Below, in pieces: positions 10,243 to 33,965 of a DNA stretch of 64,000 nt. The position numbers were made by a program, and so were the translations under genes. A model generated the notes under the pieces. That model saw only the letters and a list, made by a program, of their open reading frames with translations. It had not been told where the DNA came from and made no database searches. This DNA is from Marsupella aquatica (taxonomy: Eukaryota > Plantae > Marchantiophyta), in the NCBI GenBank assembly GCA_973895155.1, contig OZ316895.1, positions 17,625,437-17,689,436 of the forward strand. Direction: 5' to 3'. Position 1 is the stretch's first letter. Every line of letters begins with the position of its first letter.

Positions 10243-10270
10243 CTAGCTCAATACCTGTGCGTTGCACAAA
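10243..10270 (-). mobile_element. Helitron-like 3' terminus (hairpin + CTAG)
   Basis: The minus strand reads TGTGCAACGCACA (hairpin) GGTATTGAG CTAG|T. A second hairpin copy (CCCGTGCGTTGCAC) lies at ~10867-10880. Confidence 0.65.
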
Positions 10271-11110: not shown

Positions 11111-11892
11111 GAAATAAAAAATCAAGGAAACTAAGAAGGAGTGAGTCTTTTTCTTTGTTTTGTTTTTTTACCCAAAATGCCCATGCATTTGAATGGCGAC
11201 CACTATAAATTGGAGCAATGTTATATTATTGGTTTCAGATTTAGTGTTTTAGGGTTTAGCAAAGATGACTATTCTCTCAATATCCTTTCAATTCCAGTGC
11301 GTTGCATAATAGATGTTGTTTGGTTAAAGATGTTGTTGAGAAATAGATTGTACGTGGTGCAACAGATAATCGTTGAATAAAAATAATAATTGTTAAAATA
11401 CATTATTACACAAAAACTTTTGTTGAGTGAAAGATATCATTGTGCAAAATAGAAATTGGGGTCCATGCAAGACAACTAAAAATTAACTAATTTCCAAAAA
11501 GTTAAATCTCCTTTTTAAGAGCAAAAGCCAAAATAATATAATGTCAACCTACTCTCTTCCCCTTAGTGCTCGCTCCCTACCAAAACCATTATCTCAAGTA
11601 AATCTTTTCACTTTCATGCCCCATAACCCCAATTTAAGGAAAACCAAACTTTGGAAATTCCGAAAATCACTAAATATTATTATTTTAATAAAAAGGGGGC
11701 GACATGACGCGTGGCTGCGCGTGAAACCCTGAAAATGACTGCAACGTCACATTTTAACCAATCCAACTTGACGGGACCAAGAGACATGCTCACGCGAATA
11801 ATAATAATAGAGAAATAAATCTTTGAGATCCTTTATATATGATAACCAGTATATAAGGAGTTTACAAATGGTTTCTAGAACGACAATACAAA

Positions 11893-13410
11893 TTAATCTG
11901 ATCTCATGCCGACTATTATTTTGGAAGCGTCCAAAATTGGGCGTCTGTTAAATTGCTCTACTAGATATCTATCTCCATGTCCCTGAATCACAGTGTCTTC
12001 CCATAGAGTATGATTATAATCATAATCTCTAAAAATAGATTTAACTGAAAGGATAATCTCTTCCATTGGCAATGACAAGCGGCTCATAAGAGTTTGCTAG
12101 CTTGCTAAGATACGGAATCAGCAAGTTAATCAGGAAACTGTCGTCGACCGACCCAAAATATTTGGGCGGAAATAATGATCCAACAACAGGATCTAAACAA
12201 GCATGAAATGCATCGGATTCGATAAGCATTATATTTTGCTGCAGATACGCCTTCGTATAAATTCCAACATTCTCAAAACACTTCAAAAATATCCGCTTAT
12301 TTGATGTCACCCCATCGCATAAGTAACAATGAGACTGATCCCAAATATACTTAAATGAGGCCATTTCCATCGCAATAAAAATAGATGCTAAAATCTGATC
12401 TAAAAGGTTCTTCCCAAGAGAGGACCAGATCCCTACATCAAAATTCTCAAAACAGAATCTCAAGAATTCGTGAAGATGAGGCCTTGGAAAAACGTATATA
12501 TTCCCAATCCGAATTCTAGTTGAGACCGCCATCAGTCGAGAATGCGGTGCATTGTAACAGAGTAGATGCTCCACGTCTAAAACTATGAGCCCATTTTCTC
12601 TGCTGCAATGAATCTCCTGTAGAGAAACACAAGAAGATGCATGAGCCCGTATGGATGTAGTCACGCGAATGGTCATGTCACATATTATAGAGACAACATC
12701 CTCTACACTCTGGCCATTGATAAGTGACGTCTGTTGAAGTGCTTGATAAGAACTTGATCCGCATGTCTCTGCACGTACAGATGCTCCCATATATCCTCGT
12801 TCAGATCCCAATCTCGATGTAGATTTCTAATCGACCAGATGGGATAATCAAACTTGTTAGCAAACGCAAGACAAAGCCCTGAATTTGATAGCTTTTGTAA
12901 ATATGGAATGAGCTCATCCCTCAAAAAGACATCATCCAACGATCCTTGAAACGACTTAGCGAACAATAATCCGCATACAACTGTCTGGCATGTATGGGAA
13001 GGACGGGCATCAATCTGGATTATATTCTCTGGTCGATAATCTTGAAACATATCACGTAGTCTCTCGATAGATTTGAAGACAATAGTCTTATAATTTTTCT
13101 TCACATAACCAAGATTCCAGCAATGATCCCGCGTGAACACATATATCAGCTACGACAGGTCGGTGCTCGACAACACTTCTGAAAGTATCTGATAAACCAG
13201 TTTATCGTCGAGAATAGACCAAACCATCACATCAAAATGATCATAACAGAATTTTATAAGATCATGAAGATGCGGCCTCGGAACGACACATAGAGATCCG
13301 ATACGAATTCCGAGTGTCGACTTGAGCTTAGGAGTATATTTTGAAACAGAGCACAGGAAGTTTTCCAGTCCTAAAACTAGAAGTTGAAGCGACCTGCTCC
13401 ACTTAGACAC
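11893..13410 (-). pseudogene. Two tandem degenerate FCP1/NIF-type HAD phosphatase-like domains
   Basis: Motifs LVLGLENFL..PRPHLHDLIKFCYDHFDVMVWS..NIIQID and IVLDVEHLL..PRPHLHEFLRFCFENFDVGIWS..NIMLIE. There is an in-frame TAG at 13150, frameshifts near 12725 and 12050, and a probable intron ending at the strong acceptor near 12617. Confidence 0.7.
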
Positions 13411-13541
13411 ATGTAAATGAACAATTCAATTCTCATATTATGCGATTGCAAACAACCACGCGACTGGGCGCGTCACTCCCAAAATATAAAGTTCAATTTA
13501 AATCAATTTATAAATAATAATTGATAATAAACAATAAACGT

Positions 13542-16500
13542 TTACTTATTGGACTTATCCCGGGCTTCTATAGCACGGTCTTTTTCGGCAGATAAGTATT
13601 TCATAAATTCGTCAAACTTTTCTAAATGGTCTTTATTCCCCTGATTACGAATGATCACATTTCTCCTCCAAAGATTCGTCTTATCAATATAATCTTTCTC
13701 AAGATTTTCTTGAGAGAACGTTGGAATCCCATATCCACTAAGGAGCTCGCGGAATGTCAACTTGTCAATTGACATATCGCATAGATATGGATATAGTTTC
13801 TTTCTAAAAAATAGGTCATCATCGAGCCCAAAATATGCATCGGGATACAGCGATGAATAGAAGTCATTAAGGCTCGTCTTATATGCAGCGTCATCGATAA
13901 GAATGACATTCTCGATGTTGTAATCTTTAATATCGGCGGCAATGTCGGAGAGGATGTCATTATTATTCTTCCCAATAAGTCGAGTTGATTCTTGTCCCCA
14001 TATAAATTTAATACGTTTCAAAACTTTGAGTCAAAGTATCAGCCTTACACAAGATAGAATATTCTGTTTGAACATGCACGACCAGATCGCAATGTCGTAT
14101 AGATCTGCCACCTTCTCAAGAAATTCCATTAAATCAGGCCTTGGATAGATAACCTTGTGCATCTGTCTCTCACCCCTTGACCGAATGGGCATCCCAGGGC
14201 TGATCTTCTCTGACCAGATAAGTACCCGATTCAGATCAAAAATTACAAGTCTCTTCTGAACCGGTGACTTCTTTGCCGATGGATTAGGCGCCATCTGTAC
14301 CTGTGATTTTTGTGCCGCAGGGTTTGGAGAACGTACTAGAACGGTCTGTTTGTTTCCCGCCTCCGGACGATCACCGGACTTCCGGACTGGTGCCTTCGAT
14401 ACTCGATCAGGGGGTTTCAGGATAGGCTTCTGTAAAACATTAAGAAATGAAAATAAGTTTATAATGCAAACGGTCGCATGACTACAAAGAGAGACATTGA
14501 AATGAAGTGTATTACCTGTACAAGACGGTCGTTCAGTGCTGGAATTTTGCCGGAAATGTCAATCATAGCAGCACGGATCCCGATAACTAGGTTACTTGCG
14601 GACGTCGGCTTGCGGAAGTCCATGTCAAATAACGACAAGACTATCTCCCTACAGAATTTCTCAATTTGATCCGCGGCAAAATTAATTTTGTTTCCTTGAC
14701 ACAAGCACTTGGCGTATCTCAAGATAAACACACCACAACTGTGGCCGTCACTCTGGTGAGGAATATCATTCCGATATATCCGTTCCCAACCTGAGAGATC
14801 CAAGTTGACACCAGTTCTCCAGCCAATTTTGTCGGCGTAGTACTTCCCAACAATATCTAGCACCCCAGGATTTTGTCGATTATGAACTAGAGAATCTAGG
14901 TACTCCAGCCGTTTCTCCTTCGGATACACAACTACCAATGACCAATGTTCTTTCACAGCATTGTGTACTAGAAAGACCAGTTTGTCATATTGACTGATTT
15001 TTAGCGGAAACTCCTTTGTCCAAGCTGCTCTCTCCTCGTCGAAAATGGTAGGATCCATGGAGAGAAGCTCAAAATGGTGTGTTTGGAAGAATTTGACAAG
15101 GTTTGACTTTCCAACTCTATCGAGAATCAGTTCCAGAAAACTCAAATAAGCGTTAATTATATCATCGGTGAGCAACTTGCGCGGTCTCAGACACATCATA
15201 TGTTTCCTCTTGATCGAGTGTTGTAAGAACTTGGTCAATAGCTCTTCCATATCCTTAGAAGGATCAAGGCATTGATCTATTCGACTAGCCAAATTTTCAA
15301 AAAACTGCAAAAAATAGAGATTTTAGTACGCCTTCAAATAACGTACTGAGGTTGTAGCCTAAGGGTTCTACCTTAGAAAACAGAAACAATAACAAATCAA
15401 TAATAAAATAATGACATCTATAATAGAAACTTTAAGCTTATAGTTTGCGAATGACCTTTGGATTGGGTGGATCCAGCCTTTTCGCAGCTGATCTCTTGGG
15501 TGCCTCAATCGCAACAACATCCTTCAGCCCTCCTCGAGACCGTAGTGATCGCTCCACCGGACCAGTTTGCGAAGGTTGGAGCAATGAGGTGGGAAGACCT
15601 TCAAATGGTTGTGGCATTTGATTGAAATATTCCACAATCTGGGAATCCGATTCCAAAATATCCGATGCCACAATTTCTGTGCAAGTGACCTCTGCAATAT
15701 ATCGGGGTTGAGACCACAAACTCGGTCGCGTCAAGTCAGCTGTTAGTCTCTTAACGACTTGAGCCGAGTCTAGTGCCAAAGATGTTCCCAGGTCTTGCAC
15801 TCGATTCTCGGAAAAGTGGACATTATTGATGATTGTCTCCATTCTGGATGCAGTGGCAGTCTTCTCCTCGGTAATCAAAAGACCCTTCCAATATTGCAAA
15901 GCAAGGACTGCCTGGACTCGGAGCTACTCCGGTGAATATTTATTCCAATCATCCAACGAGACCGTACTTAAGGGTGGATCGTTAAATTCAAACTTCGGGC
16001 GAAGAAAATAGTCTAATATTTTCTTCTTAACTGCAACTGAGGGTGAAGAAGGCTTCTTCAAATTCAGCCTTATTTTCGGTAGACGTTGTGCCTCAGGAAT
16101 AAGCAAAAGATCCTTGGCCCTCTCGGCCTCCTTCCTCGCTGCCTCTAGTCTTGCGGCTTCTTCTCTCTCCAGTCTTGCAGAATCGACCTTTTCCGCCTCC
16201 AACTTCTCCGCCTCCACCCTCTCCGGTCTTGCGGTCTTGTCCGCCATCCTCTCGGCCAACAGCCTCTCAGCCGCCACACTCTCTGCCTTGGCCCTATTTG
16301 CCTCTATCACTAAAAGGACTCTCGCAGCCTCCGCGTTCTCAGCTTGGGCTTTCTCAGCCTCTGCGTTCTCAGCCTCCGCTTTCTCCGCCTCCACTTTCTC
16401 CACCTCCGCTTTCTCAGCCTGGGCTTTCTCAGCCTGGGCTTTCTCAGCCTCCGCTTTCTTGGCCTCCGCTTTCTCAGCCTAGGCTTTCTCAGCTTGGGCT

Positions 16501-19500
16501 TTCTCCGCCTCCGCTTTCTCAGCCTGGGCTTTCTCAGCCTGGGCTTTCTCCGCCTGGGCTTTCTCAGCCTAGGCATTCTCAGCCTCGGCTTTCTCCTTCT
16601 TCTTCGCGGCAGTTGCTTTTCTAGCTGTTGCCTTTTTCTTCTTAGCCTCCTTCTTTTGAAGCTCCTCTTGCCAGGCCGCCTCTTGCCGGGCCGCCTCTTG
16701 TCGGGACGCCTCCTCCTGTCGGGCCGCCTCCTTCTTTTGAAGCTCCTCTTGCCGGGCCTCCTCCTGTCAGGCCTCCTCCTGTCGGGCCGCCTCTCTGGCC
16801 TCCTCCTGCCGGGCCGCCTCCTTCTTTTGAAGCTCCTCTTGTCGGGCCGCCTCTAGCCGGGCCTCCTCCTGCCGGGCTGCCTCCTCTTTGGCCTCCTCGT
16901 GCCGGGCCGCCTCCTCTCGGTCCACCTCATGTCGAGGCTCCTGTGTGGCCTCTTCATCGGAGTCCTCAGCGTCCTCAGAACCCTCCATCTCCTCGTCCTC
17001 TTCATCAACGTCCTCAGCGTCCTTCATCTCCTCTCCGTCACTCTCTTCATCTCCTCTATTGTCGGAATCTCCGACGTCGTTCTGCGTATCGATCATCCAC
17101 TCTGGATCTTGGTCATTGACATCCCCATTCGCGTCACCTTCCGCGTCACCTTCCACATCATCTTCCCCCTCACCATCTGCATCACCATTGCTCCCTACAT
17201 CCTCAACATTGAAGCCGCAGTTGACTTGATCTGAATAAAATCAGATCATTTGATAAGAATGACTCACGCGCATATTTGCGTGAAAAGAAATGTTATGAAT
17301 GTCCACGCGCATGTTCGCGTGACGCAATAAAAAGTAAGAGGTTTCAAAAGTAACCTACCTTGGATTGGCCCACTAGGGTACTCCGTTGGTCGAATGTACA
17401 ATCGATCGAAATCTTCAGAGAGTGCATACTCTTGCAATAATTGATTACAAATATTATCAGGGATATGTTGTTCATGGAGGACATCCAAAACATCAGCCCT
17501 GAGAGCAGTTACGGATGGACGGTACTTCATTAATTTATCTATACATTTTTCTATACTAGCCCGTACTGGGTCAATCAATGACAGCGTTGTATCAATTGTC
17601 GCCGTGGTGTGTTGCAAGAAACAAGACAACTCCCTATGCGTTGCCACAGGGCAGTAATATTTTACATTGGATCCAGTATCCTGTAAAAAAACCAAAATTA
17701 GTTCACAATATTAATTGAGAATATAATAATCTAAATAATCTTAAATTGAAATCCCAAAATATAAATCTCAAAACTTACCATTAAGCATTGGATCAAGTTC
17801 GTTCCCTCACCAAAGCATATAGCCCATTCTCCACATTGGACGAATTGACTAACAATACTTTCAAAGAATGGAAGTATCTTTTCTGAGGAAGGTGTCGTGA
17901 ACTCGCCGCTCTCTTCAAAATTGGCTATCTTCTCAATCCGATATTTGGAGACCAATTGGAACTCGAGGGCTTATGGATCGCCCATTGTGCTGAAGGCCAA
18001 GCTGTGAAAAGCGTAGGTTACAATAAGCTTCTTCTCCTTTGGCCACTTCTGAATATAATGGCTATTGACAGCAACGTAGTGTGTGTACTTCCCTAATTCC
18101 CGTTTGATTAAGTACGACTCAACGGGAGAGGCTACAATAATAACCACATGGTGTGGTTTTGCCCCTATCTCGCTAGTAGCACGAAATAACCCCTCATAGA
18201 ATGAGCAATTTGGCGGACGCAAATCTCCCATTGATGAGGGATCAAAATAAATCAAGCTCGCAAGGTTCTTGTCTTCACATATGATACAGTCTGCAAACCC
18301 AACATTTTGTATATCCTGCAGGGATCGCAATTTCAACCTCTCACCGACCGGCCGCACTAGTTGGTTTCCTTGACTATCAACTGATTTCCGTATTCCTTCC
18401 ACCAACCTGTAGAATATCGGGTCGATCTCTTTCAACAAATTATCATTACTAATATTTACATTTAAGCACTTCTTCAGATAACCACTCAACGCATCTCTCA
18501 ACTGCTTCAGCACCATCTTGTCGAGCTTAAAGCGATCAATCATTCCTTTGACCCGCAATTTCCACGCTGAATCTGTCAGAATTTTTAGCTCCGTCCGGGT
18601 GGATGTATCCCCGTTGAGTTTACTCAATAATAAAATCTCAAACTCAACTTTTGTCTTCTTCTTTATACAGAATTGCTCCAAACTCATGCTGGTCGTTGAC
18701 AACACTGGAGCCTTAGAGGACTTCCTTGCCTTCCCAGATTTCACTTTGATGCTTCGGTTTTTGAGTATAGACAGTCTTCCGCTCAACATATATTCCGCTG
18801 CCTTTCGAAGAACCGAGTCTGAGCACCCTTGACAAGAACGGAACGTCTTCTTCAGAAGATGATAAGCACATGGATTATCCGCAATTTTGACGGCGTCCCT
18901 CTGTAAAATTCCGTTGTAAATTACAAGCTCTCCTGTCCTTGATAGTTCGTAGACCTCCATCCACTTCTTGAATGTTTCGTCCTCCATTGTAAAGAGAAAC
19001 GGAGCCAATTCTCCAAATTTCATCATTTCGTTCTTCCCCATTTGAGCCCATGGGCAAACAAAACTCGTAGCTCTCATAAATACCTGAAAAACAATGGAAA
19101 CATGACAATTCTAAGCTTGATGCGACCGTTCGCGTGACAAAAGTTTAAACGATAATGTGATCGAAGAGGGTTATTTATATACCTTCCAATTTGGATGACG
19201 ATAATATGATCCAGGCCGCCCAAATGAGTTCCAGATATTACGACACTGTCGTACAATGGTGAGAAACTGTCCTTCTTCCATTGATGTTTGATGATAGTGG
19301 TTCAGAGCTTTCGATAATCCCATCAAATGAACATTATTGTCGTTGTTGAGCGTTGCCCAAAACATTATAGCTTCTACAGTACCGCAAGCGTCTCGTACAA
19401 CTTGGCTGACTTTGTCGTCCTCTTTCAGCAATTTGTACGCCATTATTGTGTGTTGGCCTCCGAGTATCCAAAAATGACTGGTCATAATATCCTCCTCCTT

Positions 19501-20421
19501 TGGTGCCGAATCGTAGGGCGCCCCATTGTAGTCAGGATCTCTGTCGGCCTCCGACTGAACCCACTTCACAGGGACTAAAAAGCAGCATCGCTTTTCGAAC
19601 TTTATAGCCGAATGAGAAAGGAGTGAATTCTTTAGCCTATCTGTGTAATCCTGATTCCACTCTCGGCACTTGATGTGGTCTGGTGCAAGATGACAACGTG
19701 ATGTCTCAACAAAAAATGACTTGCTATTAAATATATTCATAGCACTATATTCTTTGAGGAAAGAATCGAACAGAGCCCCAACATTTGCTGAGGTAATTAC
19801 TTTCGGAAGATTCTCCGCCGAGTATACTTCAACCTTGCTCATTGGCAGGGCCTTTCCCAAGCGAAATTCCTGGTTGAAAGGAACTCTCTGGAACTCAAGT
19901 ACGTCAATAATGTATTGACAAATCAAACCTCCCGTTGATCCCTCTGGATCGGAAGGATATCCCACACTAGTAACCTTTTCCAAGGCGTGCCTTGCACCTA
20001 GAAGATCATCGATTCTGGGCTGATTGAAGGTTACATATTGCGTTCAATCCAAACAAATGCTTATTTTGTCCTCCTGCTGGTCGTCGCTGACTAGCAGAAC
20101 CAATCTCTCTGTACACTCTTTAACTTTCATGTTCTTCTCAAAGAAACACTTGAGAATTTGTGATCTCTCCAAAACTGTAGCTTTATCATTTTTTGCCACC
20201 ACAAGACGGACAACGCCATTGCGAACGACTGTTCCAAAATCGGATATCTTAGTCGATTCAAAGAGATGGATACTCTTTGTCTCCGTTGTTCTCTCTCTGA
20301 TTGACTTTCCTCGATATGCAAGTATGGATGTCTCCGCGGGAGTCATTTTTGTCTTGGCTTTCTTACGAGAAGCAGCTTTAGACGAGTCTCTTTTCTGCTT
20401 TGAAGTTTCGGTAGGATCCAT
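13542..20421 (-). pseudogene. Six-exon ~2105-codon multidomain gene: ParB/Srx-like, degenerate beta-class DNA MTase-like, acidic tract, EAARQE/AEKAQ coiled repeats, Ulp1 (C48) protease, FCP1-like HAD phosphatase
   Basis: Exons 20421-19183, 19083-17779, 17680-17359, 17230-15456, 15304-14516 and 14429-13542 are joined in frame by GT-AG introns (the 15455 donor is weak). There are seven in-frame stops (20044, 17971, 16767, 16569, 16479, 15924, 14031) and no frameshift. Motifs: FWILGGQHTIMAYKLL; LIYFDPSS...EKILPFFESIVSQFVQCGEWAICFGEG; EHWSL..YLDSL..HQSDGHSCGVF; LVIFDLNRVL..RPDLMEFL..IAIWS..VILIDD. Confidence 0.75.
16100..16930 (-). repeat. Coding tandem repeats: 15-bp AEKA(Q/E) units and 18-bp EAARQE units
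   Basis: (TTCTCAGCCT(G/C)(G/C)GCT)n at ~16330-16600 and (GCCGGGCCGCCTCCTCCT)-like units at ~16660-16930 on the + strand. Confidence 0.9.
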
Positions 20422-20496
20422 TCTAAAATAGACAAATATTGAAAGTTAAACGTTTATTATAAAATACTAACACGCGCATGGTCGTGTCGTGCCAAA

Positions 20497-21027
20497 TTAC
20501 ATTTTAGGAACGTTTATCTTGACCCAATCTTCTCGCTCATCTTCATCTAATCAAAACCAAAGGTTCCTAAACGTGTCAAGTTCAGATCCTTCAAATCCAC
20601 CCAGAATGTCCAGCGGCGGGAGAGTTTTGATGGATTCTGTAAATCTTAATGCTACACTCCGTGAAGTCAAATGCCTTCGAAGCGATTCGTATCCTGGTCT
20701 ATCAATGAAGTCGTAAGCTACTAAGGTGACCGTCACCCAAGTACTACTATAAGTAACTATGTGGCACCACTTCTTACTGACTGTTCGAATGGCGATCAAG
20801 TCCATGACCCGATTTTTAATCGCAGTATCCAACAAATTTCCAAGACAGTGAAAAAACTCTTTGACTAATGGCCAAATATATTTCTCGACAATATCGTCCG
20901 GAAGACCGGGTATCAGGTCTTCAGCTTGACTCCATATCATGTTTCGGTTGATAACCTTTGCACGTGCAATGCGCTCCATCATCATTTGACGATGAGATTT
21001 TCGATTCATGTCAAAGGACTGCAGCAT
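20497..21027 (-). pseudogene. F-box-like cargo ORF 3 (premature TGA at 20551)
   Basis: LIPGLPDDIVEKYIWP...DLIAIRTVSKKWCHIV. The frame continues past the TGA (LDEDEREDW) in homology with the paralogs. Confidence 0.6.
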
Positions 21028-21061
21028 AATATGGAAAAGATTAAGAACAAGAACCTATCCA

Positions 21062-21628
21062 TTAAGAACTGGGACCACCTAGATTCTGAGAAAATCTACC
21101 AAACCTTTCGATTAGAACATCTCGTTCTTCCTCATCTAAATTGTTATATTTGTTCGTAATCAATGCGATGTCGTCAAAAGTAGTAGTCCCAAGAACAGAT
21201 ATTTTTGGAAGCATAGAAATATCCTGTCAAATAACTCGACAGACTGAGTCAAACTCCAACTCGTCAGTTTCGGGTATGTCATAAAGAGCTTTATTTGTGA
21301 CATCGACAATCCGGTTTGCTTGTTTGAGGATAGCCCATAACCTTGTATTTGTAACTAAAAAGTTCCACTTCTTGCTACAAGCTCCAAGCCGAATAAGGTC
21401 TCGGACCCTATTGATAACCAAATCGTTATCGAGGTATCGATATCCACGCAATCTTTCAATTGAAATAAAGTGTTCGTAGAGTATTGGCCAAATGTTTGAA
21501 ATGACCAAAACATTTGGTATTCCTCCAATGAGACTAGAGGAGGTTTCATCCAGGGTATCCCATATTGTTTTTTGTTTCCTTTCATGAGATGAAAGGAAAT
21601 CTCGAGCCTCATTCAAAAGTTGGCTCAT
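21062..21628 (-). pseudogene. F-box-like cargo ORF 2 (premature TGA at 21227)
   Basis: LIGGIPNVLVISNIWP...DLIRLGACSKKWNFLV. The frame continues (QDISMLPKISVLG...LDEEER) in alignment with ORF 3 (SIKTLPPLDILG...LDEDER). Confidence 0.55.
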
Positions 21629-21693
21629 CCTACTTTTATCATATCACAAAACATTGTTAGAAGACATACGACGCGCTTGGTCACGTAAGTTAA

Positions 21694-22245
21694 CTAGAAT
21701 TCCTTAAAAGCGTAGATGTCACCCTCAAGGTATCCAACTTCGTGGCATCTGACTGTAAATTTCCATTTTTCAAGAGGGTGAAGAGCATCGTAAGTCTTCG
21801 TGAAGAGTTCCCTAAGATCTCTGGACATTGACCCCATGAATTTAATTCTTGGGTATTTCTGGAAGAAACTTTGAACTGTCGATGAGAGAGACTCATTTCC
21901 GATTGGTTTAGTAGGATTTCGTGGGAAAGCCAAATCTAATAAACTCAACTTCATTACACCTAGAAGATAGGTATTCCCAACAAGGTGGCGCCATCTGCGA
22001 CACACCGAAGATAGTCCTACAAACTCATCCAATTCCTTTATTGAGAAATTTCCTGCATTAGTCGAGGAATTAAAAGTCTCCTTGATCCGAGGCCATATCA
22101 ATTTCGCGACAATGAAATCTGGAAGTCCAGGTAGTAGTGTTTCAACAAATACAGAATATCCCGCCAGTAGACCATCTTGGCTTCTGTCCAAAACATCAAA
22201 TATTGGGCATAGATATCTAAAGCTCTCCAGACCAGGTTCGCCCAT
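21694..22245 (-). CDS. F-box-like cargo ORF 1, 183 aa
   Basis: LLPGLPDFIVAKLIWP...LSSVCRRWRHLV F-box pattern; paralogous to the next two ORFs. Confidence 0.6.
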   Translation of the reverse strand: MGEPGLESFRYLCPIFDVLDRSQDGLLAGYSVFVETLLPGLPDFIVAKLIWPRIKETFNSSTNAGNFSIKELDEFVGLSSVCRRWRHLVGNTYLLGVMKLSLLDLAFPRNPTKPIGNESLSSTVQSFFQKYPRIKFMGSMSRDLRELFTKTYDALHPLEKWKFTVRCHEVGYLEGDIYAFKEF

Positions 22246-22385
22246 GACTCTTTTCAGCCAAATGATATATCCCAGAGATTATTTTCACGCGACTGGTCGC
22301 GTCTACAAATCAGAATGTATAAACAATTCTTTGAGAGACTGATTTTTTTGGGTCACAACGTGACAAATCATAAATGTTGCTTTGT

Positions 22386-23010
22386 CCTCTAATAGAACCA
22401 GTCAATGAGAGAGCTACCTCAGACGCGACTGGTCGCGTCAACTGAACCTAAACAACTATATCTAGTGAACCTTCCTTGTGGATATTTGGATATGGTACGC
22501 GCTCAGTAAATCTATCCAGTTTCCTTCTCACACACGACTGGTCGCGTCAACTGGTCCTAAAAGGAACCTTACCTCCTCTAACAGAACCAGTCAATGAGAG
22601 ATCTACCTCAGACGCGACTAGTCGCGTCAACTGCTCCTAAAAGGAACCTTACCTCCTCTAACAGAACCAGTCAATGAGAGAGCTACCTCAGACGCGACTG
22701 GTCACGTCAACTGAACCTAAACAACTATATCCAGTGAACCTTCCTTGTGGATATTTGGATATGGTACGCGCTCAGTAAATCTATCTAGTTTCCTTCTCAC
22801 ACGCGATTGGTTGCGTCAACTGGTCCTAAAAGGAATCTTACCTCCGCTAACAGAACCGGTCAATGAGAGAGCTACCTTTGACGCGACTGGTCGCGTCAAC
22901 TGAATCTAAATAACTATATCCACTGAACCTTCCTTATGGAGATTTGGATATGGTATGCGCTCAGTAAATCTATCCTGTTTCCTTCTGACACACGACTGGT
23001 CGTGTCAACA
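22386..23010. repeat. Tandem array (189-bp unit plus an 80-bp subunit) carrying 7 palindrome copies
   Basis: Unit starts at ~22386, 22575, 22655 and 22844. GACGCGACTGGTCGCGTC-type sites at 22422, 22531, 22611, 22691, 22800, 22880 and 22989. Confidence 0.9.
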
Positions 23011-24087
23011 GCTCAAACAACTTTTGGACACTAGGATAATATAGTGATACAACTATGATTACTGACCTGTACGGACAAGGAAATCCAAGTAAGCATGATT
23101 TCATTCATTTGTATTCATTCATGAACTTTACAATAATTCAGATGTTTGAGCTCTGTCATTGTGAAACTATTATATATCAGAAGTTTAGAGAATGATTCAG
23201 CTAAGATGATTCAATTTAGCAGTCTACTGGTTGTATTCATCAATTAAAGGATTCAGTGTAATGAGATTCACATAACATGAGAGTTTATATGATTAAATTC
23301 ACAGCGTGCAAGTTTGTAATGAGTTTGTAATGAGTTTGTATAATTCACACATATTTGAGTTTACAAACAAACCGCATTATAAAAACTCAGCTTAACAATC
23401 AAGAGAAATTTTAGCAAACAACAATCAACACCAGCAGAAAATGTAGAAATTGCACCTGAATTCTGAAAAATTGATGTAATCGTCTGAGAGATTGACGTCC
23501 AAGCACTTGAAGACCTTGCTACGGCATTCCAGAAAGTAAATATAAGATTGAAGATATTAATATGCTAAGCAACAACAACATAGCTTCTATACTTCTATAC
23601 ATAGAGCTTTGCTGCCACCAATTGAATAACATGTGCTTAATGCTAAGGAACTCATTATATCGAGTTAAAAAGACTCTTTCAGAAGTACAATCAAAGCTGT
23701 GGATAGGCAAACTGAGCATGAATAAAAGTGCACTAAACTTGAAGATTCAAAGAGGTGAAACAAACCTGAATGCTGAATGGAAGGAGCTGAAACAAGCTGC
23801 CAAAAAGTAGTTCGAGCTGCTGAAACACGTTGATCGAGCTGATATGAGCTTAAAATTGGCTGACACGAGCTGATACGAGCACTCCCAAAAAACTAGCTGC
23901 AACGAACCCAACGGGCTCCTAAGAATCCCTTCGAGCAAACTAGAAGTGAATACGAGCTGTAAATGCGAGCTGCAACATGCCAACGAGCTCCTGGTCGAAA
24001 CGATCGATAATTACTAAGAGTAGCAACGCGCCGACAAGCACCTGACCACAACGAACGAGCTGCAACGACAAAAATGAAATCCAGGGC

Positions 24088-24157
24088 AGGAGCGAGAGCG
24101 AGAGTGAGAGCAACGAGAGTGAGAGCGACGAGAGCGAGAGCGAGAGCGACGAGAGCA
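24088..24157. repeat. (GAGAGC)n-like simple repeat, CT-rich on the minus strand
   Basis: GAGCGAGAGCGAGAGTGAGAGC... run, preceded by scattered ACGAGCT heptamers (23810-24065). Confidence 0.8.
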
Positions 24158-25000
24158 GGCGTGCAAAAGTCTAGGGAGCGATGTCCGGGTGACCGTGTTT
24201 TCTGGCAAGAGCATGTTGGCTCTTTTGAAGTTAACCTTGCATGCTCATAAGTTCTACACTAAAATTAAAATGATAATTCTAGTAACAAGGGTAGTGGGTA
24301 TTAAGAAAGGTTCAGGTGAAACTAAAATACTGTTAAACCCTACTTCACCATACTTGCGGACCAACACATCACAAAAATTAGTTTTCTTACAACATATGAT
24401 CCTAATACCTCCTAGAGAAAATGAAATAGGAATATCATCCGGACTCCTATTCAGATCCATGACTTCAATAAAGGACAAAGATGATGCACTCCCACTCCTC
24501 TCGGTACGACACCACTGGGTATATTATTGGCTCGTTAGAAACCATAACAGCAGTTGCAAACTGAGCTCCAAAATGATAGGTTAGATTTTGCCTCATAGAT
24601 GGTTTGTCTAAAAGATGGACTCTAATCAAAAACAGATTACGAAGGGGAAGATCAGGGATAACTCTCTCTCCTGGATTCATGATGGCTCTCCTATTCCTTT
24701 GCTATCCGGGCCAAAGGATGCCCCACCCCTATATTCCCAAAGAAACCTTATTCCCTAAGGTCCCATCTATAAGTCTACCACTCATTCCTTTGCTATCCGG
24801 GCCAAAGGACGCCCCACTACTATGTTCAAGGCACAAAAGAGCTTCACAACCTTGAATGATAAACACTGCGGAATGAGGGGAGAGTGCCCCTCACCACTTT
24901 ATTTATAGTGCACACCAAGAGGGCATGGATCAAACCCAAGCACTTGGATGAAGGCCAAGTGTCAAACATCTAATACCAAAGAGTGTGCTAGTACTGTTCA

Positions 25001-25230
25001 TAGTTGGTGAAACTACTTTTAGTAGGTGAAACTACCATGCGTTGGTGGAACTACTATGCGTTGGTGGAACTACTATGCGTTGGTGGACCTACTGTGCGTT
25101 GGTAAAACTACTGTGCGTTAGTAAAACTACTATGCGCTGATGGACCTACTGTGCGTTGGTAGAACTACTATGCGTTGGTGAATATTATTGTAGTTGGTGT
25201 TACTCATATGCATTGGTGGAACTACTATAG
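25001..25230. repeat. 20-bp minisatellite (CTACTATGCGTTGGTGGAA-like), ~11 copies
   Basis: Visible tandem units across 25001-25230. Confidence 0.9.
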
Positions 25231-26799
25231 TCCGTTAATATAGCTAAAGAGTTTTAATAAAATCTAAATTTAATAATCTAACTACTAAATTACTTATATA
25301 ATCTATAACATATTAAAACAAACAATTTTTTATAACTTAAGAGAAAATCACGACAGCGAGAAACAACAATAATGAACAGTGAACTCGAGACCGTGGGCGC
25401 CGACACTAAGGAAGGACTAATTAGAGTATTGTTTTAGCATAACCCTAATAACAGCCTAGCGACAGGAAGATTCCAGATGATCTCTGTACACTCCACCATC
25501 GATTGAACAAACTATGCAATCGTGAAAAAAAGATTACCGGATTCCTTTTGATTTGCCGTACTAAAGGAGATTTCTATTTGATCGCCAATTTGAAATTTAA
25601 ACCGGTAATTATGCAACTGCAAAAGATTGTTAGTGGGGACCCCCGGATCCGTATCTTCACTATATCCGCCAATTCAAATCCAAAATATGAATGAACAATA
25701 ACTTTCTCACGATCGTTCCATCACGTAGTGGAGGCGAACTTTAAAATCATTCCATTTTGGTAGTGGAGACCGTCGGATCCGGATCCGTACTCCACTCTCT
25801 ATCTTGCCAATTCAAACCCATACTCTAAACAACGTAAAACGATTCTCACGGTCGGGGAGAACCGATATTCAAAATCAATCCTGTACAATGATTCTCACGA
25901 CTGGAGACTCAACCAATTTTCAAAATTAAAATTGAGTCCAGATGAACACATCCTTCATGGAGTCAATAGACTGATCTCATTGCTCACGGATCATTCTTCA
26001 TTTTCAGTTTCTCCTGACCGGGATACTAGCTGGGCTCTCAGCGGAGGCTGATCCAAGGCACATTTGAGGTGGAGCAGATTGGATCATTCGACTATTCCAA
26101 TCGGAGGCGGAGCTCATTCAAGCAACGCTGGCGCAATTCTTGTTGTATCACCTTCAATCTTGGGGAGAGCACATCCAATCAAGCGGGAGAGTTGCGACGA
26201 AGCAAGACGACAAACATTTAGAACCTCCATAGTCTGCCTCATTCATCAAAGCATTCTAGCGGACCAACAAAGAGCGGCTATTCTGAAATCATTGTCTGGT
26301 TGAGGATTTTGATCTTGATACGATCAATAAGTTGTCATTCTCTGGTGGTGGGATTCGGTCACGATACTCAAGGAAATTGGAGTTCAAAGGAGGAGGCTTA
26401 ATTGGCTGGGACGAGGAGGCTACGCTGGAAGGAAGAGGCTTGGCTGGGAGGAGGGTTTCCGCCAACATCGGAGGGTTGCCGCCAACATTGCTAAGACCAC
26501 ACGCAACTGAATAACTTGTAAGTATCAATCAGCATTAATTCCGCAATAAATGAGGAGAGTAGTTGTCTTAAATCATGCATTCAATGCATGAATTGAGTCA
26601 ATGAAGTTATGGTCCAATTTCTCACTCCGATTTTGATCAATTCGTGTTTCAAGTCCAATACAGAAGCAATGTATCAGAAGTACTAGTAGAGGATCCGAAT
26701 GAATTCTCTAGTCTAAAATTGTATGGCGTTCAAGTATAGTTGTTCGTACGTTTTGCTATTGTTTATTATAGTCGACGGCCTAGCAAAATGAAACGTAAT

Positions 26800-27980
26800 C
26801 GAGGTCCATTTTTCAGATCAGACTGATCTCAACTTGTTAGTAGGATGACCTGATTTTTTGGTTACACATGTAGTTCATCACACGCACAGTCGCGTGAACC
26901 AATTTATCTCATGTCTTTTGATATTGTTTATTGTAGTCGACAGCCTAGCGAATTGGCCAGCAATCTATTTTAAAACTAACGTCTTCATTTCATCACGCGC
27001 ATGATCGCGTTAATGTTTTAGAGGTCAGCGAAAGCTCTGCACTCTTAGATGTAATCGCCCTTTATTTCTCAGATCTTCCTGATCTCAACTTGTTAGTAGG
27101 ATGACCTATTTTTTGGTTACACATGTAGTTCATCACGCGCACAGTCGCATGAACCAATTTATCTCGTGTCTTTTGATATTGTTTATTGTAGTCGACAGCC
27201 TAGCGAATTGGCCAGAAATCTATTTTTAAACCGAGGTCTGTGTTTCATCACGCGCCCGGTCGCGTTAATGTTTTAGAGGTCAGCAAAAGCTCTACACTCT
27301 TAGACGTAATCGCCCTTTATTTCTCAGATCTTCCTGATCTCAACTTGTTAGTATGATGACCTATTTTTTTGGTTACACATGTAGTTCGTCATGCGCATAG
27401 TCGCGTGAACCAATTTATCTCGTGTCTTTTGATATTGTTTATTGTAGTCGACAGCCTAGCAAATTGGTCAGCAATCTATTTTAAAATTGAGGTCTGTGTT
27501 TCATCACGCGACCGGTCGCGTTAATGTTTTAGAGGTCAGCGAAAGCTCTGCACTCTTAGACGTAATCGCCCTTTATTTCTCAGATCTTCCTGATCTCAAC
27601 TTGTTAGTAGGATGACCTGTTTTTTTGGTTACACATGTAGTTCATCACGCGCACAGTCGCGTGAACCAATTTATCTCAGGTCTTTTTGATATTGTTTATT
27701 GTAGTCGACTGCCTAGCGAATTGGCCAAAAATATATTTTAAAACCGAGGTCTTCGTTTCATCACACGCCCGATCGCGTTAATGTTTTAGAGGTCAGCGAA
27801 AGCTTTGCACTCTTAGACGTAATCACCCTTTATTTCTCAGATCTGCCTGATCTCAATTTATTAGTAGGATGACCTGTTTTTGGTTACACATGTAGTTCAT
27901 CACGCGCACAGTCGCGTGAACCAATTTATCTCAGGTCTTTTTGATATTGTTTATTGTAGTCGACAGCCTAGCGAATTGTC
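26800..27980. repeat. ~255-bp tandem array, ~4.5 copies, two palindromes per unit
   Basis: TGATCTCAA(C/T)TT(G/A)TTAGTA(G/T)GATGACCT at 26825, 27080, 27335, 27591 and 27848. Nine palindromes lie between 26879 and 27918. Confidence 0.92.
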
Positions 27981-28224
27981 AGTCAGAGGAATCTCGATTT
28001 TTCCTTGATTGCAAAAATGGTTACATTGATCCCGAAGGACTTCAGATGTGGAATCCATATCCTCTAGCACTATCCAGGAATTTAACTGACCTGGTCTTTC
28101 GAACACTATTTTCCACGGGACGAAATTAAGCTACACAGTATCTATAACAGGTTCTAACTTGAACTACTCTTGAATCTGTAGTTCTAATCTTCAACTACTC
28201 AAAATATTGTTGACTTTGATCAAG

Positions 28225-28766
28225 TCAGTCATTCCAAGATGAAGGCATCCACTCATCGGTGTCTGGTGTGGATTCCCTTGAATCCATAAATTCTTCCTTT
28301 GCCCAAGTCCTAACGTCCATAGATTTTCTCGGCTTGCTCTTTCTGTAATACAAATCAGAATCTTCGTTCATCTCTAATTGCCTTTTCTTCGGTGCGTCCA
28401 CTTTCTTGGCCTCCTTCTTGACTGTCTTAGCGTCTACTGCTGCTTCCCCGAAATGGATTCGACGCATGCTCTGGCCTTCAACTTCTCCCCCCTCGAAACG
28501 GATTCCACGAGGGCTTTGCCCTTTAACTTCTCCCCTGATGCCATCTTTGTAGTCATCTTTGTCGGATTGGTCTCCATCTGATCTTCCATCGACAAATGTG
28601 GTGAACAATGTCGTCTCTCACAAAACATTTGACCCAATTTAGTCACCGTAAACATTATATTACATCGCTGACACATTCTGTAAGGAGTACCACGAATTCA
28701 ATACGTTGAACCTTCTGAATTGTCCGTTAGAACATCCTCATTCTTTGAGCTCAGCGGAGTAGTCAT
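28225..28766 (-). pseudogene. Small Cys-motif/charged protein remnant
   Basis: ATG 28766 is in frame, through one TGA, with MCQRC...FCERRHC. An apparent frameshift then leads into a D/E/K-rich tail ending at 28225. A TATAAA lies on the minus strand near 28896-28901. Confidence 0.35.
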
Positions 28767-29118
28767 CGCCCTTCAAACAAGAGATGCGGACTGAGACTAA
28801 GAATTGGAAATGAGAGAGCTGATGTGCGAATAGATTATCCAGTAGCCAAAAAGTGGAATGCGTGGGGGAATGAGCAGTAGGGATCATCTCAATGCTTTAT
28901 ACTGTTTAGTCTCCACTAGTCATTGTACATAGTGGTTTCTAGAAGAGAGTGCGCGTTTGACTGGCGCGTATTAGAATTGGCGGGAAGTCCAGTTGTCCTC
29001 TAATTATGGCTTTAATTTCACATTTGGCGACCGCCCCGGGATTACTGATTGCTAGTGAAGTACTGAGATTTCTTATGAGGGTTACTGACTGTCCGGTGTC
29101 CACTCATTGGTAAACTGG

Positions 29119-29700
29119 TACTGTCCACTCATTTTTTCTAAGTGGAGTTGAAATGATTGTTCGTAATCAATTGTAGTCGTTCTCATTCACTTGAAATGAC
29201 TGACGGACCATGCATAATCTGTTACCGGTATGTGTGATGCCTTTAGATCCGTAATTGTATCTTCCTGTCTCACGCGCAATCGTATCTTACTTATGAAGTA
29301 CCAAGTACGAGCTAGAGTTTGGGCCTAGCCTTCTAGCTTCTACGTCGTAGACCCTGTTATCCCTACATCCTCTGACTAAGGTCACGTGACTAGTCGCGTG
29401 CAGGGCAGTGCATTGACTACATTTTGCCTACTTATTGACGGTCGTGACAGGACAATGCAGTTCACGGACGTTTTACTGGCGCTTATTAGCATTATTATCC
29501 TCAGTAGTTACTGACTGTCCACTCATTTGTTCTGAGTGGATGTGAAATGATTGATCATAATCGATTGTGGCCGTTCTCATTCATTTGAAATGACTGACGG
29601 ACCATGCATAGTCTGTTGCGGGTATGTGTGGTACCTCTAGGGTCACGCGACTAGTCGCGTGCAGCGCAGTGTATTGACTACATTCTGCTTATTGACCGAC
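29119..29700. repeat. Dispersed direct repeats upstream of the transposase, with two palindromes
   Basis: ~29119-29245 repeats at ~29515-29635, and 29381-29425 repeats at 29642-29685. Perfect CACGCGACTAGTCGCGTG at 29644-29661. Confidence 0.8.
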
Positions 29701-29766
29701 GTGATAGGACAGTGCAGTGAAATTGACGGATGTGACATGATTGTACGCTTACAGTGATATTCTCTG

Positions 29767-32700
29767 ATGTGCATGATCATAATTATTATGGTGACATCGA
29801 TAGTTTGGATCAGGGAAGGCGGACAAGTTATTATAGGCATACGTGAGAAACAGGTTGGAAAAGGTCGCGTGATAAGTCTTGATCCTTCCAGGGTTTGTCA
29901 CAATGTTCCTCTTGGGGCAAACAGAGCTCTTCTTCTATTGGAGGAAGTTTTTGACGAGACCATTCTATGCGAAGATGGCAAACTTTTGAAGGACATGATT
30001 GGGGGTTACCTTGTATGGGAAAGGAATCAGCTTTTTTGAGCTCCCATAGAATCGGAGGATGTGTTTGGCACTGTTGGTGATGATCAAGATCTAGTCAGTC
30101 AAAATTCTGATGGGAACAACCATAATGAGAGTCGGTCTGGTGTGGAAGTAGTTTTACCAAAGGCCTTGTGGATGGGCATGCCTGTAAAGGTGGTGGATGA
30201 GAACAAGTTGATTTTTGCAGTGGCAACTATATATGTTCTAGATCCTATAGTGAAGCTTGGGGATGTCACCCTTGGGAATACACATGTGGGAATTCTGATC
30301 AATGATTTTGTCGAGGGAGCTACCATAGATCATCTGAAGCATAGAGATTGCTTAAAATCTTGGTCGATGGACCAACTCATTGCCAAGGATGGCAACTTGT
30401 TGTCTTTCCACAACATCAGGCAAGCTGTGGGAGGGAACACATCTCCAACAAGTGGCAAGCGGTCCTACGTCCATAAAAGTAGGAAAAGAAAGAGTCCATC
30501 TTCCCAGACATCTAGAAGAGACACATCTTTGGCACGTCAAGATGTGTTGTTGATAAACACTAAGGATTGTTGTAGTGAACATTGTTGCCAATATTTGGAC
30601 CACAACTTGGCTATGGCAATTAGGCAAAAGTGGTGGTCAAAATCTTTTGCGGAGCGCAAGGAGGAGGAAATCAAGGCTATTAAAAATACAATACACTTGG
30701 ATACTGGAGAAAGGATTCTAGCAGTGGAGGGCAAAGTATTGTGCTTGGAGGCATGGAGAATCATTCATTCAAGAGGAAAGACTCAATTTTATGCCTTGAA
30801 GAAGACTGTGATGGCTGGAATGAACATAGGTACCCATGGTAATGCTGGAAAAAGGCGTATGTCCGAGAAAGTATCTCAAGCGTTCATGTCAATGAAAGAG
30901 ATTATTGAGGAGGCAGTTGATCATCATCCAGCCAAGTTGAGAACCATGGCAAATAATACAAGGATGGTTTTGAGGGAATTGCCAACAAATTTTACTTGGG
31001 AGAATATTAGAAACAGGGTTAATGTTGTCAACCAGGAGGCTGGTCTTCCTCCAATTTCCCAACCCACCTTGAGTCATCTACATCAGATGTATTGAGATCT
31101 TCAGGGAGTTCTCACGTCACAAAAAGGGCAACAACTTTTCAAAGTGTACAACTTGTAGTGAGTTGCTTCAACGGAAAGCAAACCTTACAGGAGCTAAGGA
31201 AGAGTTAGAGGGCCTAAGGCGTGACGAGGAGGAACATCACCAAGACCACACACAGCAAAGAATGTGCTACCATACCTGGAGATATGAGTCCATCCATCGT
31301 CCAAAGGAAGTGTTATGCCTTATTCATGATAATTAAGATGGATCATTCAAAGACAGCTCTCCCAAGAATGCCCTTCAATCCTAAGCATGTGGATGGTGCC
31401 CAAAAGTTCCCAATTACTGTCACTGGTATCCTTACTCATGGTCATGGTCCCAAGGCCATAGCCCAATATCATGTTGGAGTGTGGCCAGGTGATGTCAACA
31501 TCACTATTGGGTCAATTGATTCAATACTAAGGATGTTGGAAAACCCAAATCCAATGATCAAATCACTTGTGGAGGGGCCAGACTCGACAAGTCTTTTTAA
31601 AGACCTCCTTTTTGGGAGAGCAGATATCTTGGAGGCAAGTGTCCTTAGAGCATTTGAGGATGACATTGCCTACATCTCAAGCCTAGGTACTTTACTCACA
31701 ATCCTTTAATTTATTATTATTTAATAATATAAGCTCACACACACTGACACTCTACTTTGTGTAGTTGTTGCTCCTCCTAGCCAAGGTTTCATTAATAGGG
31801 TTTAAACCCTAAACCCTAAATTGGGGTTTAGGGTCTGACTAGGGTTTTATTTAAAAGCATTCTGAGATTGTTACATTGTGATGCAACACCTGAGGCACCA
31901 AAGTTCAGGCCCCTTCCACGAGTATTGAAGCTACAACTGGATAATTATGCCTCAGACAACAAGAACAGATATATGATGGCTTATTTGTCATTGTTGACGG
32001 CAAGGGAGGTGTTTGAAGAGGTTCATCTTGGTTTTATGGTGGTTGGGCATACTCATGAGGACGTTGACTGTATGTTCGGGCATTTTTCAGAGTCTATGAT
32101 GCATAACCCCACATACTCATTGCCTGAGTTAATGTCCTTGTTCATGAGAGCAAGGACACCCAATGCAGTCCCACATTTTCTACAGGAGGTCCCAGATTTC
32201 AAAAACTACTTAGCTCCATTCATGTTGAAGGGCCCTGAGGCATTGGTGGGGCATTTAAAACCCAGGCTGTTTAGGTTCTATGTTCGTCATGATAGTATGT
32301 CATGCTTCCAATACAAAATGAAGTCAACTGATCAGGGATGGTTACCCAAGGAAGGTATTGAAATGTGGTCATGGAAAGATGACAAAAGTCCTCACATCCC
32401 AATTGGGGTGCCCAAACGGCTACCAATGATGGAGTTGAAAATGCTTCCTGAAGTGCTGACAGGGTTGAAGAAGCATGTGTCATTCTTTGAGTTTATTCTA
32501 AAGCGAACAAAAGAGGAAGAACCAAAGCGACGTTGGACAACTCTCATCAATTATTGGAATGACATTGTAGATACTCTACAGGGTGAGCAGGTGCAATATG
32601 AACCTGAAGGTGCACACAACTTGGAATACGGGTTTTGGCCTTTATCAATATGGAGAGAGCACGTTCCACCAGAATATCGAAATGTGGCATGTGAGTTGGA

Positions 32701-33170
32701 GGCAACAGTGATGTGGGACCAGCAAAAGATAAACCTCCTGAGAGTTTTAACCCTAGGGTTGATGTTGTGAAGGGCTGTTATGTGTTGGTACGGCCGGACG
32801 ACTCAGACCTGGATGTTTATCCCGTCCATATGGGGTTAGTTGTTACAGATGTGGTAGAAGGACCAGTGAATGAACAAAACCTTCTTACTCATGTATGTGG
32901 CGTTGAGTGGTTTAGACCATTTATGGCAAAGAAGCAACGTGGTCAATCAGACTGGCAGCCAAGAGAGTGGTGGGCAGATTCTTGGGATAAGAAATGGGAA
33001 CGTGATCCAACTCCAATATACAAGGAAGCTGAGACAATAGATGTTTCCTCTGCCTTGTGGTGTTTCAAAGCATGCAAAGGACCAAGACAGGGCTGGTAGG
33101 AATTCCAAAGAATGTTGCTGTCAAGGCAAGAGACTATCTCTTGACATGCATAGTAAGTGACAAATCCTAG
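29767..33170 (+). pseudogene. Sola1-like (DUF7869-type) DDD transposase with two N-terminal Tnp1/En/Spm-like domains
   Basis: CC..HCC and LCLEAW motifs, FSKCTTC, IHD/KMDHSKT, LQLDNYASDNKN and FMVVGHTHEDVD. In-frame TGA at 30037, frameshifts near 31095, 31330, 32710 and 33090, and an intron at ~31688-31870. Confidence 0.7.
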
Positions 33171-33965
33171 ACAGTAATGAAACATGTAGTTTAGCATACA
33201 ATTTAAAAGGCAACTCATAATAGTAGTAGCCAGAGAACTCAAGTTTAGACAAGTCTTATCGTCTAAGTTAGTTAGTTGGTTAGTTTATTTAAAATATAAT
33301 ATTAGTTAGTGGGGTCTTAGTTTGGTGATATTAAGGCATGATATTATTGACATTCAAATGAATGTCCAGTAGACATTGTAATATACAACAATCCTATTAA
33401 TTGTTGTAAAGGGTGGTCAATCTTTTTTGTATTCAACCCTATAGTAATTAAATAGACAATTGAAACAATGAATGACAATTTAATTAAGAATTTGTGCATG
33501 GATCAAGAGGTACTTGATGTCATTTAGTGATGCATTGTTATAAAGATCTTGCAACAAAACATTTGAAGTTTTTGACTATCCCACCAAATGTTAAAGAGGT
33601 TGATCATTCATTAACTTATAATATTTAAATAAAATTGGAATTAATCTAATAATTCAGTATTCCTTAAATTGGGGTTCCATGCCAAATGTACTCTAAATTA
33701 ATAGACCATAAAATAATATACTTACACTTTAATGCTCCATGCCAAAAAGTATTATACGCAAGCTACAAAATAACTACAATAGCACATGCAAGTACTCTAT
33801 GATATATTATATCTACCTTGTACTATAACTTACAGCCAATTTTAGGTTCCCATCTCACTCAATCCAAGAGCCATAAATAATTCAAGAAAATATCTGATGG
33901 CTTAGCTTTGTTCCCTCCTTTTTCATTTTTGTAACGGGACGAAGGACTAAAACTGGCGGGAATCG

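Follow-up and report, generated by a model that had tools for sequence, protein, structure and literature searches.

A 64,000-nt window of the Marsupella aquatica genome (contig OZ316895.1) contains a cut-and-paste DNA transposon of 22,052 bp (11625..33676), with a DUF7869 transposase at its right end and cargo genes on the minus strand. Scattered through this element are 28 copies of a CpG-rich palindrome. What is new, judging from sequence comparison, is that relatives of the DUF7869 transposase lack this motif yet carry repeated dyads of their own; the presence in these relatives of other, lineage-specific dyads, none with the window motif, points to the palindrome being a family-wide, fast-changing cis element. 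We tentatively favour a reading in which the dyads would be bound by a dimer of the transposase-gene product, keeping promoters and cargo unmethylated and active as TnpA and VANC do.

The motif has the core ACGCG-N6-CGCGT. All 28 sites named in a preliminary description of the sequence are present, with cores beginning one base later than given there, as its coordinates included a flanking S base: 13 match exactly, 12 have one mismatch, two have two and one has three. Every one of the 19 deviating half-site letters is a C-to-T or G-to-A change at a CpG, where the description had spoken of most. Among spacers of 0–15 nt compared across the window, a spacer of 6 returned 13 exact matches and 25 within one mismatch; all other lengths gave no exact match and at most three within one mismatch. 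The earlier claim that the spacer is fixed at 6 nt thus stands. The variation of its sequence, noted in the same place, has limits: its last base is T in 26 of 28 sites and its first base A or C in 27 of 28. The site is therefore best described as an imperfect 18-bp dyad of the type CACGCGACT|AGTCGCGTG, loose at its centre. No compensatory changes were seen among the 28 sites. As had been reported, the motif is confined to the element: the remaining 41,948 nt of the window, outside 11625–33676, hold no exact and no one-mismatch copy. With both of its tandem arrays removed, the element holds five exact copies and ten within one mismatch, against 0.0 and 0.03 in 200 dinucleotide shuffles.

The dyads occupy several kinds of position. 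Four fall in three in-frame predicted introns of a long accessory gene: a decayed site (14464..14479) in intron 14430–14515, a pair (17266 and 17305; 17266..17320) in intron 17231–17358, and one (19120..19135) in intron 19084–19182. Three precede an ATG by 42–50 bp, in agreement with the earlier remark on copies ahead of open reading frame (ORF) starts; located by motif match, they lie 50 bp before the long cargo gene (20472..20487), about 43 bp before the second F-box-like ORF (21671..21686) and about 42 bp before the first (22287..22302). Two are found between NIF-like coding stretches, one (12663..12678) with two CpG changes, 46 nt before the likely acceptor of the third NIF-like frame, and the other (13458..13473, a motif match) in an intron or spacer. 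An exact copy (11707..11722) lies 82 bp inside the left end, and two (29384 and 29645; 29384..29660) lie before the transposase, between it and a small minus-strand ORF. The remaining 16 are in two arrays that, as described before, carry two sites per unit: a compound tandem array of 80/109-bp sub-units with seven dyads (22385..23014) and a 255-bp tandem array with nine (26808..27978), in which the spacer of the second site varies among units. All ten isolated sites in 11625–22384 lie outside predicted coding exons, which make up 84% of that stretch; site 12663 counts as non-coding only by placement of the exon start after it, its frame being open through the site and its intron status a guess.

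To set this motif against its family, we used the best 80 of at least 422 confirmed metagenome loci with a related transposase (33–50% identity). ACGCG-N6-CGCGT occurs in 0 of the 80. Their non-coding DNA holds other repeated palindromes that are specific to lineages, namely TGGTGGCCACCA, CACGGGTGAACACCCGTG, TTGGCCATATGGCCAA and GGAYG-N3-CATCC. TGGTGGCCACCA gave 191 matches within one mismatch versus 0, 3 and 1 in three crude shuffles, at a density per 10 kb of 6.75 in the 2 kb after the transposase, 2.2–2.9 in the 5 kb before it and 0.28 inside it. Within one clade of transposases (SH-aLRT 99), 36 of the 56 rows have it at least two times, as against none of 17 loci outside. Locus L011 has 11 copies of CACGGGTG-N2-CACCCGTG, in an upstream 47-bp array and in predicted introns; L005, where the transposase is intact at 1,070 codons and the contig contains no further ORF of 90 aa, has eight upstream dyads of the GGCCATATGGCC type; and L003 has five downstream copies of GGAYG-N3-CATCC. 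The plan of the window element recurs in L031, which spans 11.3 kb, has AACAC ends with a 4-bp duplication of ATAT and carries NIF cargo on the minus strand; its own dyad occurs 26 times, at each end, in the interior and in arrays ahead of the transposase. Both L030 and L031 have dyads some 90 bp in from each end. The loops of the relatives' dyads measure 0–2 nt. Alignment of the motifs by eye around their axis of symmetry shows CACG-x-G to be common to the window and L011, and GGTG to L011 and the large clade. Convincing element ends were found only in L030–L033 and partly in L022 and L064; automatic searches for terminal inverted repeats in AT-rich loci returned mostly noise. The preliminary description had suggested looking for related families whose motifs differ and co-vary with the cargo protein. 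Different motifs were indeed found; they follow the transposase lineage, and co-variation with cargo was not shown. Three further loci deserve mention. L052:147–890 has seven matches within one mismatch to TGCGA-N11-TCGCA and L014:2516–2600 has three copies of TTGTC-N7-GACAA in a 34-bp array, either of which may derive from a neighbouring element; L064:203–3802 is a more distant DUF7869 element with GAGGCCC ends, the end sequence varying across the family.

Sister copies of the element were compared in contigs of public runs, of which X1 and X4 belong to one study and may include the source of the window. At site 14464, all three deviations are restored in the sister majority of runs X1 and X4, giving a perfect site. 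Fixed spacing within unrelated flanks, the restoration of this decayed site and the differing dyads of other lineages support, at the level of sequence, the earlier proposal of a dimeric binding site kept by selection. Over 11540–14520, the window and the X1 sister majority differ at 28 positions, 20 with A/T in the window and G/C in the sisters and two the reverse. These 20 window-specific losses, which include the three at site 14464, affect 10 of 230 CG, 9 of 190 CHG and 1 of 718 CHH positions, so that C loss in the silenced window copy runs about 30 times faster at CG and CHG than at CHH, a concentration from which we infer that the copy has been methylated since insertion. For each 1% of divergence, methylated copies of the family lose some 4% of their CG cytosines. 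Decay at motif CpGs (3 of 32) did not differ significantly from that at other CpGs (7 of 201; p = 0.14), and none of the listed sister indels falls inside a site (0 of 9 and 0 of 3), numbers small enough to make this a weak test of spacer-length constancy. In some sister contigs of X1, X2 and X4, a 35-bp tandem duplication of 19107–19141 (joint 19141 to 19107) copies site 19120. A divergent sister contig, found in both X1 and X4 and noted at 13443, reads ACGCC-ACCCGA-CACGA in the position of site 13458, with the same spacing and three half-site changes, possibly a shifted specificity.

The composition of the window copy is uneven along its length. The observed/expected (o/e) ratio of CpG is 0.74–0.84 over the site-bearing 18 kb and 0.22–0.37 from 250 bp to the right of the last site; across codon positions 3-1 it is 0.65–1.07 in the cargo and 0.18–0.42 in the transposase. 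If active copies were protected in the neighbourhood of the sites, this pattern would be expected, yet it is not specific to such protection.

In the mechanism that we tentatively favour, a dimer of an element-encoded protein would bind the dyads as double-stranded sites. The dyad symmetry, the fixed sequence within unrelated flanks, the loops of 0–2 nt and the lack of compensatory changes argue for such sites rather than for an RNA hairpin. The binder would be the product of the transposase gene, because this is the sole protein found common to all five dyad-bearing lineages. Binding would shield the surrounding promoters and cargo genes from methylation, since, despite the CG and CHG decay of this copy, the site-bearing 18 kb keep their CpGs and the site-free 4 kb do not, and the number of sites would rise by local tandem duplication.

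A number of observations weigh against this mechanism. No dyads lie in the last 4 kb of the element, which is odd for a transposase site; of its two ends only the left has one nearby, unlike L030 and L031, which carry them at both. Such palindromes as the 590 bp of right subterminal sequence contain all differ from one another and are about as expected from AT-rich DNA. Retention of CpG is not unique to sites, as a nearby site-free copia pol ORF reaches a CpG o/e of 0.98 across codon positions 3-1; CpG shows no fall with distance from the sites in the left 18 kb, and L031 is CpG-poor throughout although it has 26 dyads. The two deviations of site 12663 are not restored in the sister majority at 70% share. 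Among the 56 rows of the TGGTGGCCACCA (TGGTGG) clade, 20 have fewer than two copies, several of them short contigs, and the clade comes from a quick tree in which 7 of the 80 loci were left out for short matches, many rows are near-duplicates, and the window transposase is a long branch of unsure placement. Finally, the compact relatives may have arisen by deletion and may depend in trans on larger copies: L030 has remnant frames in common with L031, which has NIF cargo like the window, and the ends of L005 and L011 were not found on their short contigs.

The element is bounded by terminal inverted repeats, imperfect over about 55 bp, the left one beginning AACCCCAATTTAAGGAA... (11625..11680, plus strand) and the right one (33620..33676, minus strand) having no dyad within 4 kb. 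Its ends are AACCCC, flanked by a 4-bp target duplication, CCAT (11621..11624 on the left, 33677–33680 on the right). Five public-run contigs exit the element at 11625 into dissimilar flanks, indicating insertions at several sites, and two contigs join the left flank directly to right-flank sequence, as expected of an empty site. The transposase gene (29758..33099, plus strand) comprises two N-terminal repeats, a Cys cluster and the DUF7869 catalytic core (E = 1e-35), which we take to be the transposase core from its context and from a likeness of motifs; the D/D/D-E residues are invariant in the DUF7869 alignment. In the window copy the gene has several stops and is CpG-depleted and dyad-free. 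Its N-terminal repeats match a profile of the relatives (E = 7e-5 and 3e-4) with no direct match in Pfam, and the corresponding domain of L005 matches Transposase_23 at E = 0.002, below the cut-off; by sequence the repeat weakly resembles a TNP1/En-Spm domain. The superfamily may be Sola-like or CMC-like. We found no match to the window transposase in viral contigs. In the open-access literature searched, no paper names DUF7869 and none describes the layout; there, too, work on ParB with eukaryotic transposon cargo, DUF3723, moss Sola elements and moss palindromic subterminal sites includes nothing that describes the element.

Three other features of the element are worth recording. A predicted transposase intron contains telomere-like AAACCCT repeats around the word AAATTGGGGTT (31805–31835), which resembles the element's own end. 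Between 24200 and 25000 lies a CpG-poor stretch with features like those of a long terminal repeat (LTR), perhaps a nested fragment, for which no clear duplication was found. A small broken ORF on the minus strand (28225–28760), transcribed away from the transposase, encodes acidic and basic stretches downstream of a C-x2-C ... C-x3-HC cluster; it has no Pfam match and is a third candidate reader of the dyads.

The cargo is dominated by the predicted accessory gene (13542..20421, minus strand), with six exons of about 2,106 codons in all and five introns, all GT-AG and in frame. Its predicted order is a ParB-N-like fold, a helical region of unknown kind, acidic and coiled-coil repeats, a Ulp1/C48 protease domain (Pfam C48 E = 8e-18, with His-Asp-Cys motifs present) and a NIF-like domain (Pfam NIF E = 3e-6) without DxDxT. 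The window copy has seven internal stops, the first of which is a sense codon in the sisters and is read through by the homolog P0001; the stop at 14033 is not among the listed sister differences. Homologs of the protein at 43–55% identity occur in Logan contigs, and their similarity ends at two predicted donors, that of P0001 and P0002 at the donor of the intron with dyad 19120. Two more NIF-like (CTD-phosphatase-like) coding stretches, likewise lacking the catalytic DxDxT, lie at 12044..13401 (minus strand; Pfam NIF E = 1e-14 and 7e-5), and three small ORFs with weak F-box-like matches at 20554..22245 (minus strand; Pfam F-box E 0.001–0.016, below the cut-off).

The accessory protein probably has a ParB-N/sulfiredoxin-like fold (19282..19749, minus strand), as judged from a predicted model and weak structural matches. 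The model of ORF 19183–20043 has a mean predicted local distance difference test (pLDDT) score of 51, with most 10-residue core blocks at 53–85. With Foldseek, its best eight rows are ParB/Noc (E 0.01–0.09); with VIA, the top three are ParB-N-like (Z 5.7–6.3, root-mean-square deviation 3.4–4.3, 94–103 aligned), below the reliable level; and in Atlas a ParB_N cluster scores 0.91 at rank 27, after DUF3723 and unnamed clusters. Sequence and profile searches, including Pfam, gave no sequence-level match to the region, and no relatives of it were found in metagenome or viral contigs. The CTP-binding arginine patch of ParB is GxxRxxA; this is not evident in the region, which has GGQHT instead, within a GGQHTIMA that is invariant in three homologs. 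A DNA-reading helix-turn-helix (HTH) domain was not shown in exon 2, for which the model has a pLDDT of 30 and no Atlas or PDB match. The idea, formed by eye, that exon 2 encodes a ParB-plus-methyltransferase was dropped, as searches of Pfam, PHROG, PDB and Atlas gave no match and the model is unusable. By tblastn and profile searches, the ParB-like region, exon 2 and Ulp1 have no match in the 80 related loci.

A serious, if rather unlikely, rival reading is that the long accessory protein is the binder, its ParB-like domain loading at the dyads like ParB at parS, spreading, and recruiting the SUMO protease and phosphatase-like decoys. A predicted ParB-N-like fold in an element with 16-bp palindromes would suit it, and the sites crowd in the introns and upstream of the accessory gene, with none in the transposase gene or at the right end. 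The gene may also be old, given the NIF cargo of the distant L031, and it has the Logan homologs described above; the compact relatives that lack it may be deletion derivatives. Against this, the 80 loci, with at least four other dyad types, contain no ParB-like match, and L005 has dyads and an intact transposase with no other ORF. The fold matches themselves are weak (E >= 0.01, Z < 7), GGQHT replaces the arginine patch, and no HTH was shown downstream of the fold. Its most elaborate version, resting on the predicted fold, is decidedly unlikely: a ParB-fold/SUMO-protease/dead-CTD-phosphatase clamp would load at the CpG palindromes in the introns and promoters of the element's cargo, spread and strip silencing marks, with methylation of the four CpGs per site acting as the host's off switch. 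More doubtful still is that the dyads are plain subterminal transposase sites for assembly of the transposition complex, the internal ones being by-products of end duplication and cargo capture. The position of dyads about 90 bp inside both ends of L030 and L031, and 82 bp inside the left end of the window element, is as this would predict, but the right end of the window element has none though the family has inserted at several sites, at least nine isolated internal sites sit in introns or spacers of unrelated sequence, as far as 10 kb from an end, and site 14464 is intact in the sisters.

The remaining explanations dispense with an element-encoded binder. It is quite improbable that the dyads are bound by a host transcription factor (CAMTA, VOZ or an unknown reader of CGCG) and that the element exploits it as an enhancer, even though each half contains CGCG and sites precede genes. 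With the consensus sequences given in PMC6321167, only 15 of the 56 half-sites fit CAMTA (VCGCGB), and the arrangement for VOZ, GCGT-N7-ACGC, occurs 0 times; the 42 kb of flanking DNA hold no copy of the motif. A host factor is also disfavoured because the dyad sequences are lineage-specific, and the four unrelated dyads of the relatives would demand four host factors. An RNA hairpin that aids the splicing of short introns is very improbable. On the transcribed strand, eight sites do have an AG 34–56 nt downstream, asymmetric sites have the same orientation in six of seven independent cases (p = 0.125), and the L011 dyads are also in predicted introns; yet none of the 28 sites has a compensatory change, four of five introns show no stronger folding than shuffled sequences (z −0.8 to +1.5, with the fifth at z −2.1), the relatives' loops are 0–2 nt, 18 sites are in arrays or spacers, and two predicted introns of the long gene have no site. 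Least probable of all is a neutral relic of repeated local duplication or a tiny mobile palindrome. Although 16 of the 28 copies come from two arrays and the sisters show a fresh 35-bp duplication, the flanks of the isolated sites are unrelated, the four CpGs per site persist despite CG loss in methylated copies, and the layout recurs in other lineages.

A dimer of the transposase-gene product, the binder we tentatively prefer, has counterparts in known elements. By analogy, the system would work like the VANC and TnpA systems while being a member of neither, because it has no VANC domain, no Mutator transposase and no CACTA ends. According to 10.64898/2026.08.24.746577, TnpA and the AtMu1 transposase bind motif clusters with local hypomethylation; for En/Spm TnpA and AtMu1, sites and hypomethylation are terminal there, whereas most sites in the window are internal, with none close to the right end. 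Clusters at both termini, as in CACTA/TnpA elements, are found in L030 and L031 and not in the window, which has none within 4 kb of the right end. CACTA elements have CACTA/G ends with a 3-bp duplication; the window element instead has AACCCC ends, a 4-bp duplication and a DUF7869 catalytic core.

The likeness to VANC targets is closer in layout. VANC motifs lie in introns, upstream regions and tandem repeats (PMC5735166), and, according to PMC5735166, PMC10398659 and PMC13547354, VANC targets share with the window motifs that differ between families, placement in introns and upstream, and multiplication by tandem repeats; the 35-bp sister duplication is a growth mode described for them in PMC5735166. 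In these three sources, however, the reported VANC motifs are 8–9-bp non-palindromic words, and VANC itself derives from MAIN and is specific to dicots. VANDALs belong to the Mutator elements, whereas the window element has DUF7869, no MULE domain by Pfam and a 4-bp duplication. No VANC/PMD-type (MAIN-derived) Pfam family was found among 24 ORFs of the element at E <= 0.1, nor among seven more. Ulp1-type cargo is known in VANDAL/Kaonashi MULEs and is shared with the window element. With bacterial ParB–parS, the element shares a predicted ParB-N-like fold alongside 16-bp palindromes; it differs in that the CTP-binding arginine patch is not evident, neither an HTH nor ParA was shown, and related elements have dyads with no detectable ParB-like gene. 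Sola elements resemble it in their DDE-type transposase, putative in the window element, and in their short inverted ends, 4-bp duplication and occurrence outside seed plants. A Physcomitrella Sola1 is named in PMC9033089, and 4-bp duplications are given for Sola2 in PMC3627910, but the LDN/GHTH motifs of DUF7869 are missing from the Sola2 transposases in the Sola2 alignment file that supplements the latter.

Elsewhere in the window, the content by Pfam is that of a land-plant host, with PPR and HVA22 genes and copia and gypsy neighbours. Directly left of the element, a 35-bp tandem array of about 17 copies (10243–11470) ends near AAATTGGGGTCCATGC, which resembles the right end of the element together with its target and may represent another related element or a preferred target repeat. 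The copia pol ORFs at 47653–51387 are CpG-undepleted (o/e 0.82), unlike the window's other retroelements. Arrays of the octamer TTAAGAGT occur at 51775–51960, 54764–54828 and 63849–64000 in the LTR/leader of a gypsy element, whose gag region holds a very long ORF and which also has two unassigned ORFs (52159–54558 and 56031–56918).

Self-activation by sequence-specific binding has been shown so far for Mutator and CACTA elements of flowering plants. If the dyads are bound as we tentatively propose, it would extend to the uncharacterised DUF7869 transposase family, and the family's dyads, of at least five different kinds, would offer a natural series for studying the co-evolution of a transposon protein and its site. 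With four CpGs in each site, there is a simple test of whether methylation of the sites switches copies between active and silent states. Should the ParB-fold accessory protein be the reader instead, the element would represent a bacterial-style loading-and-spreading device in a eukaryotic transposon.

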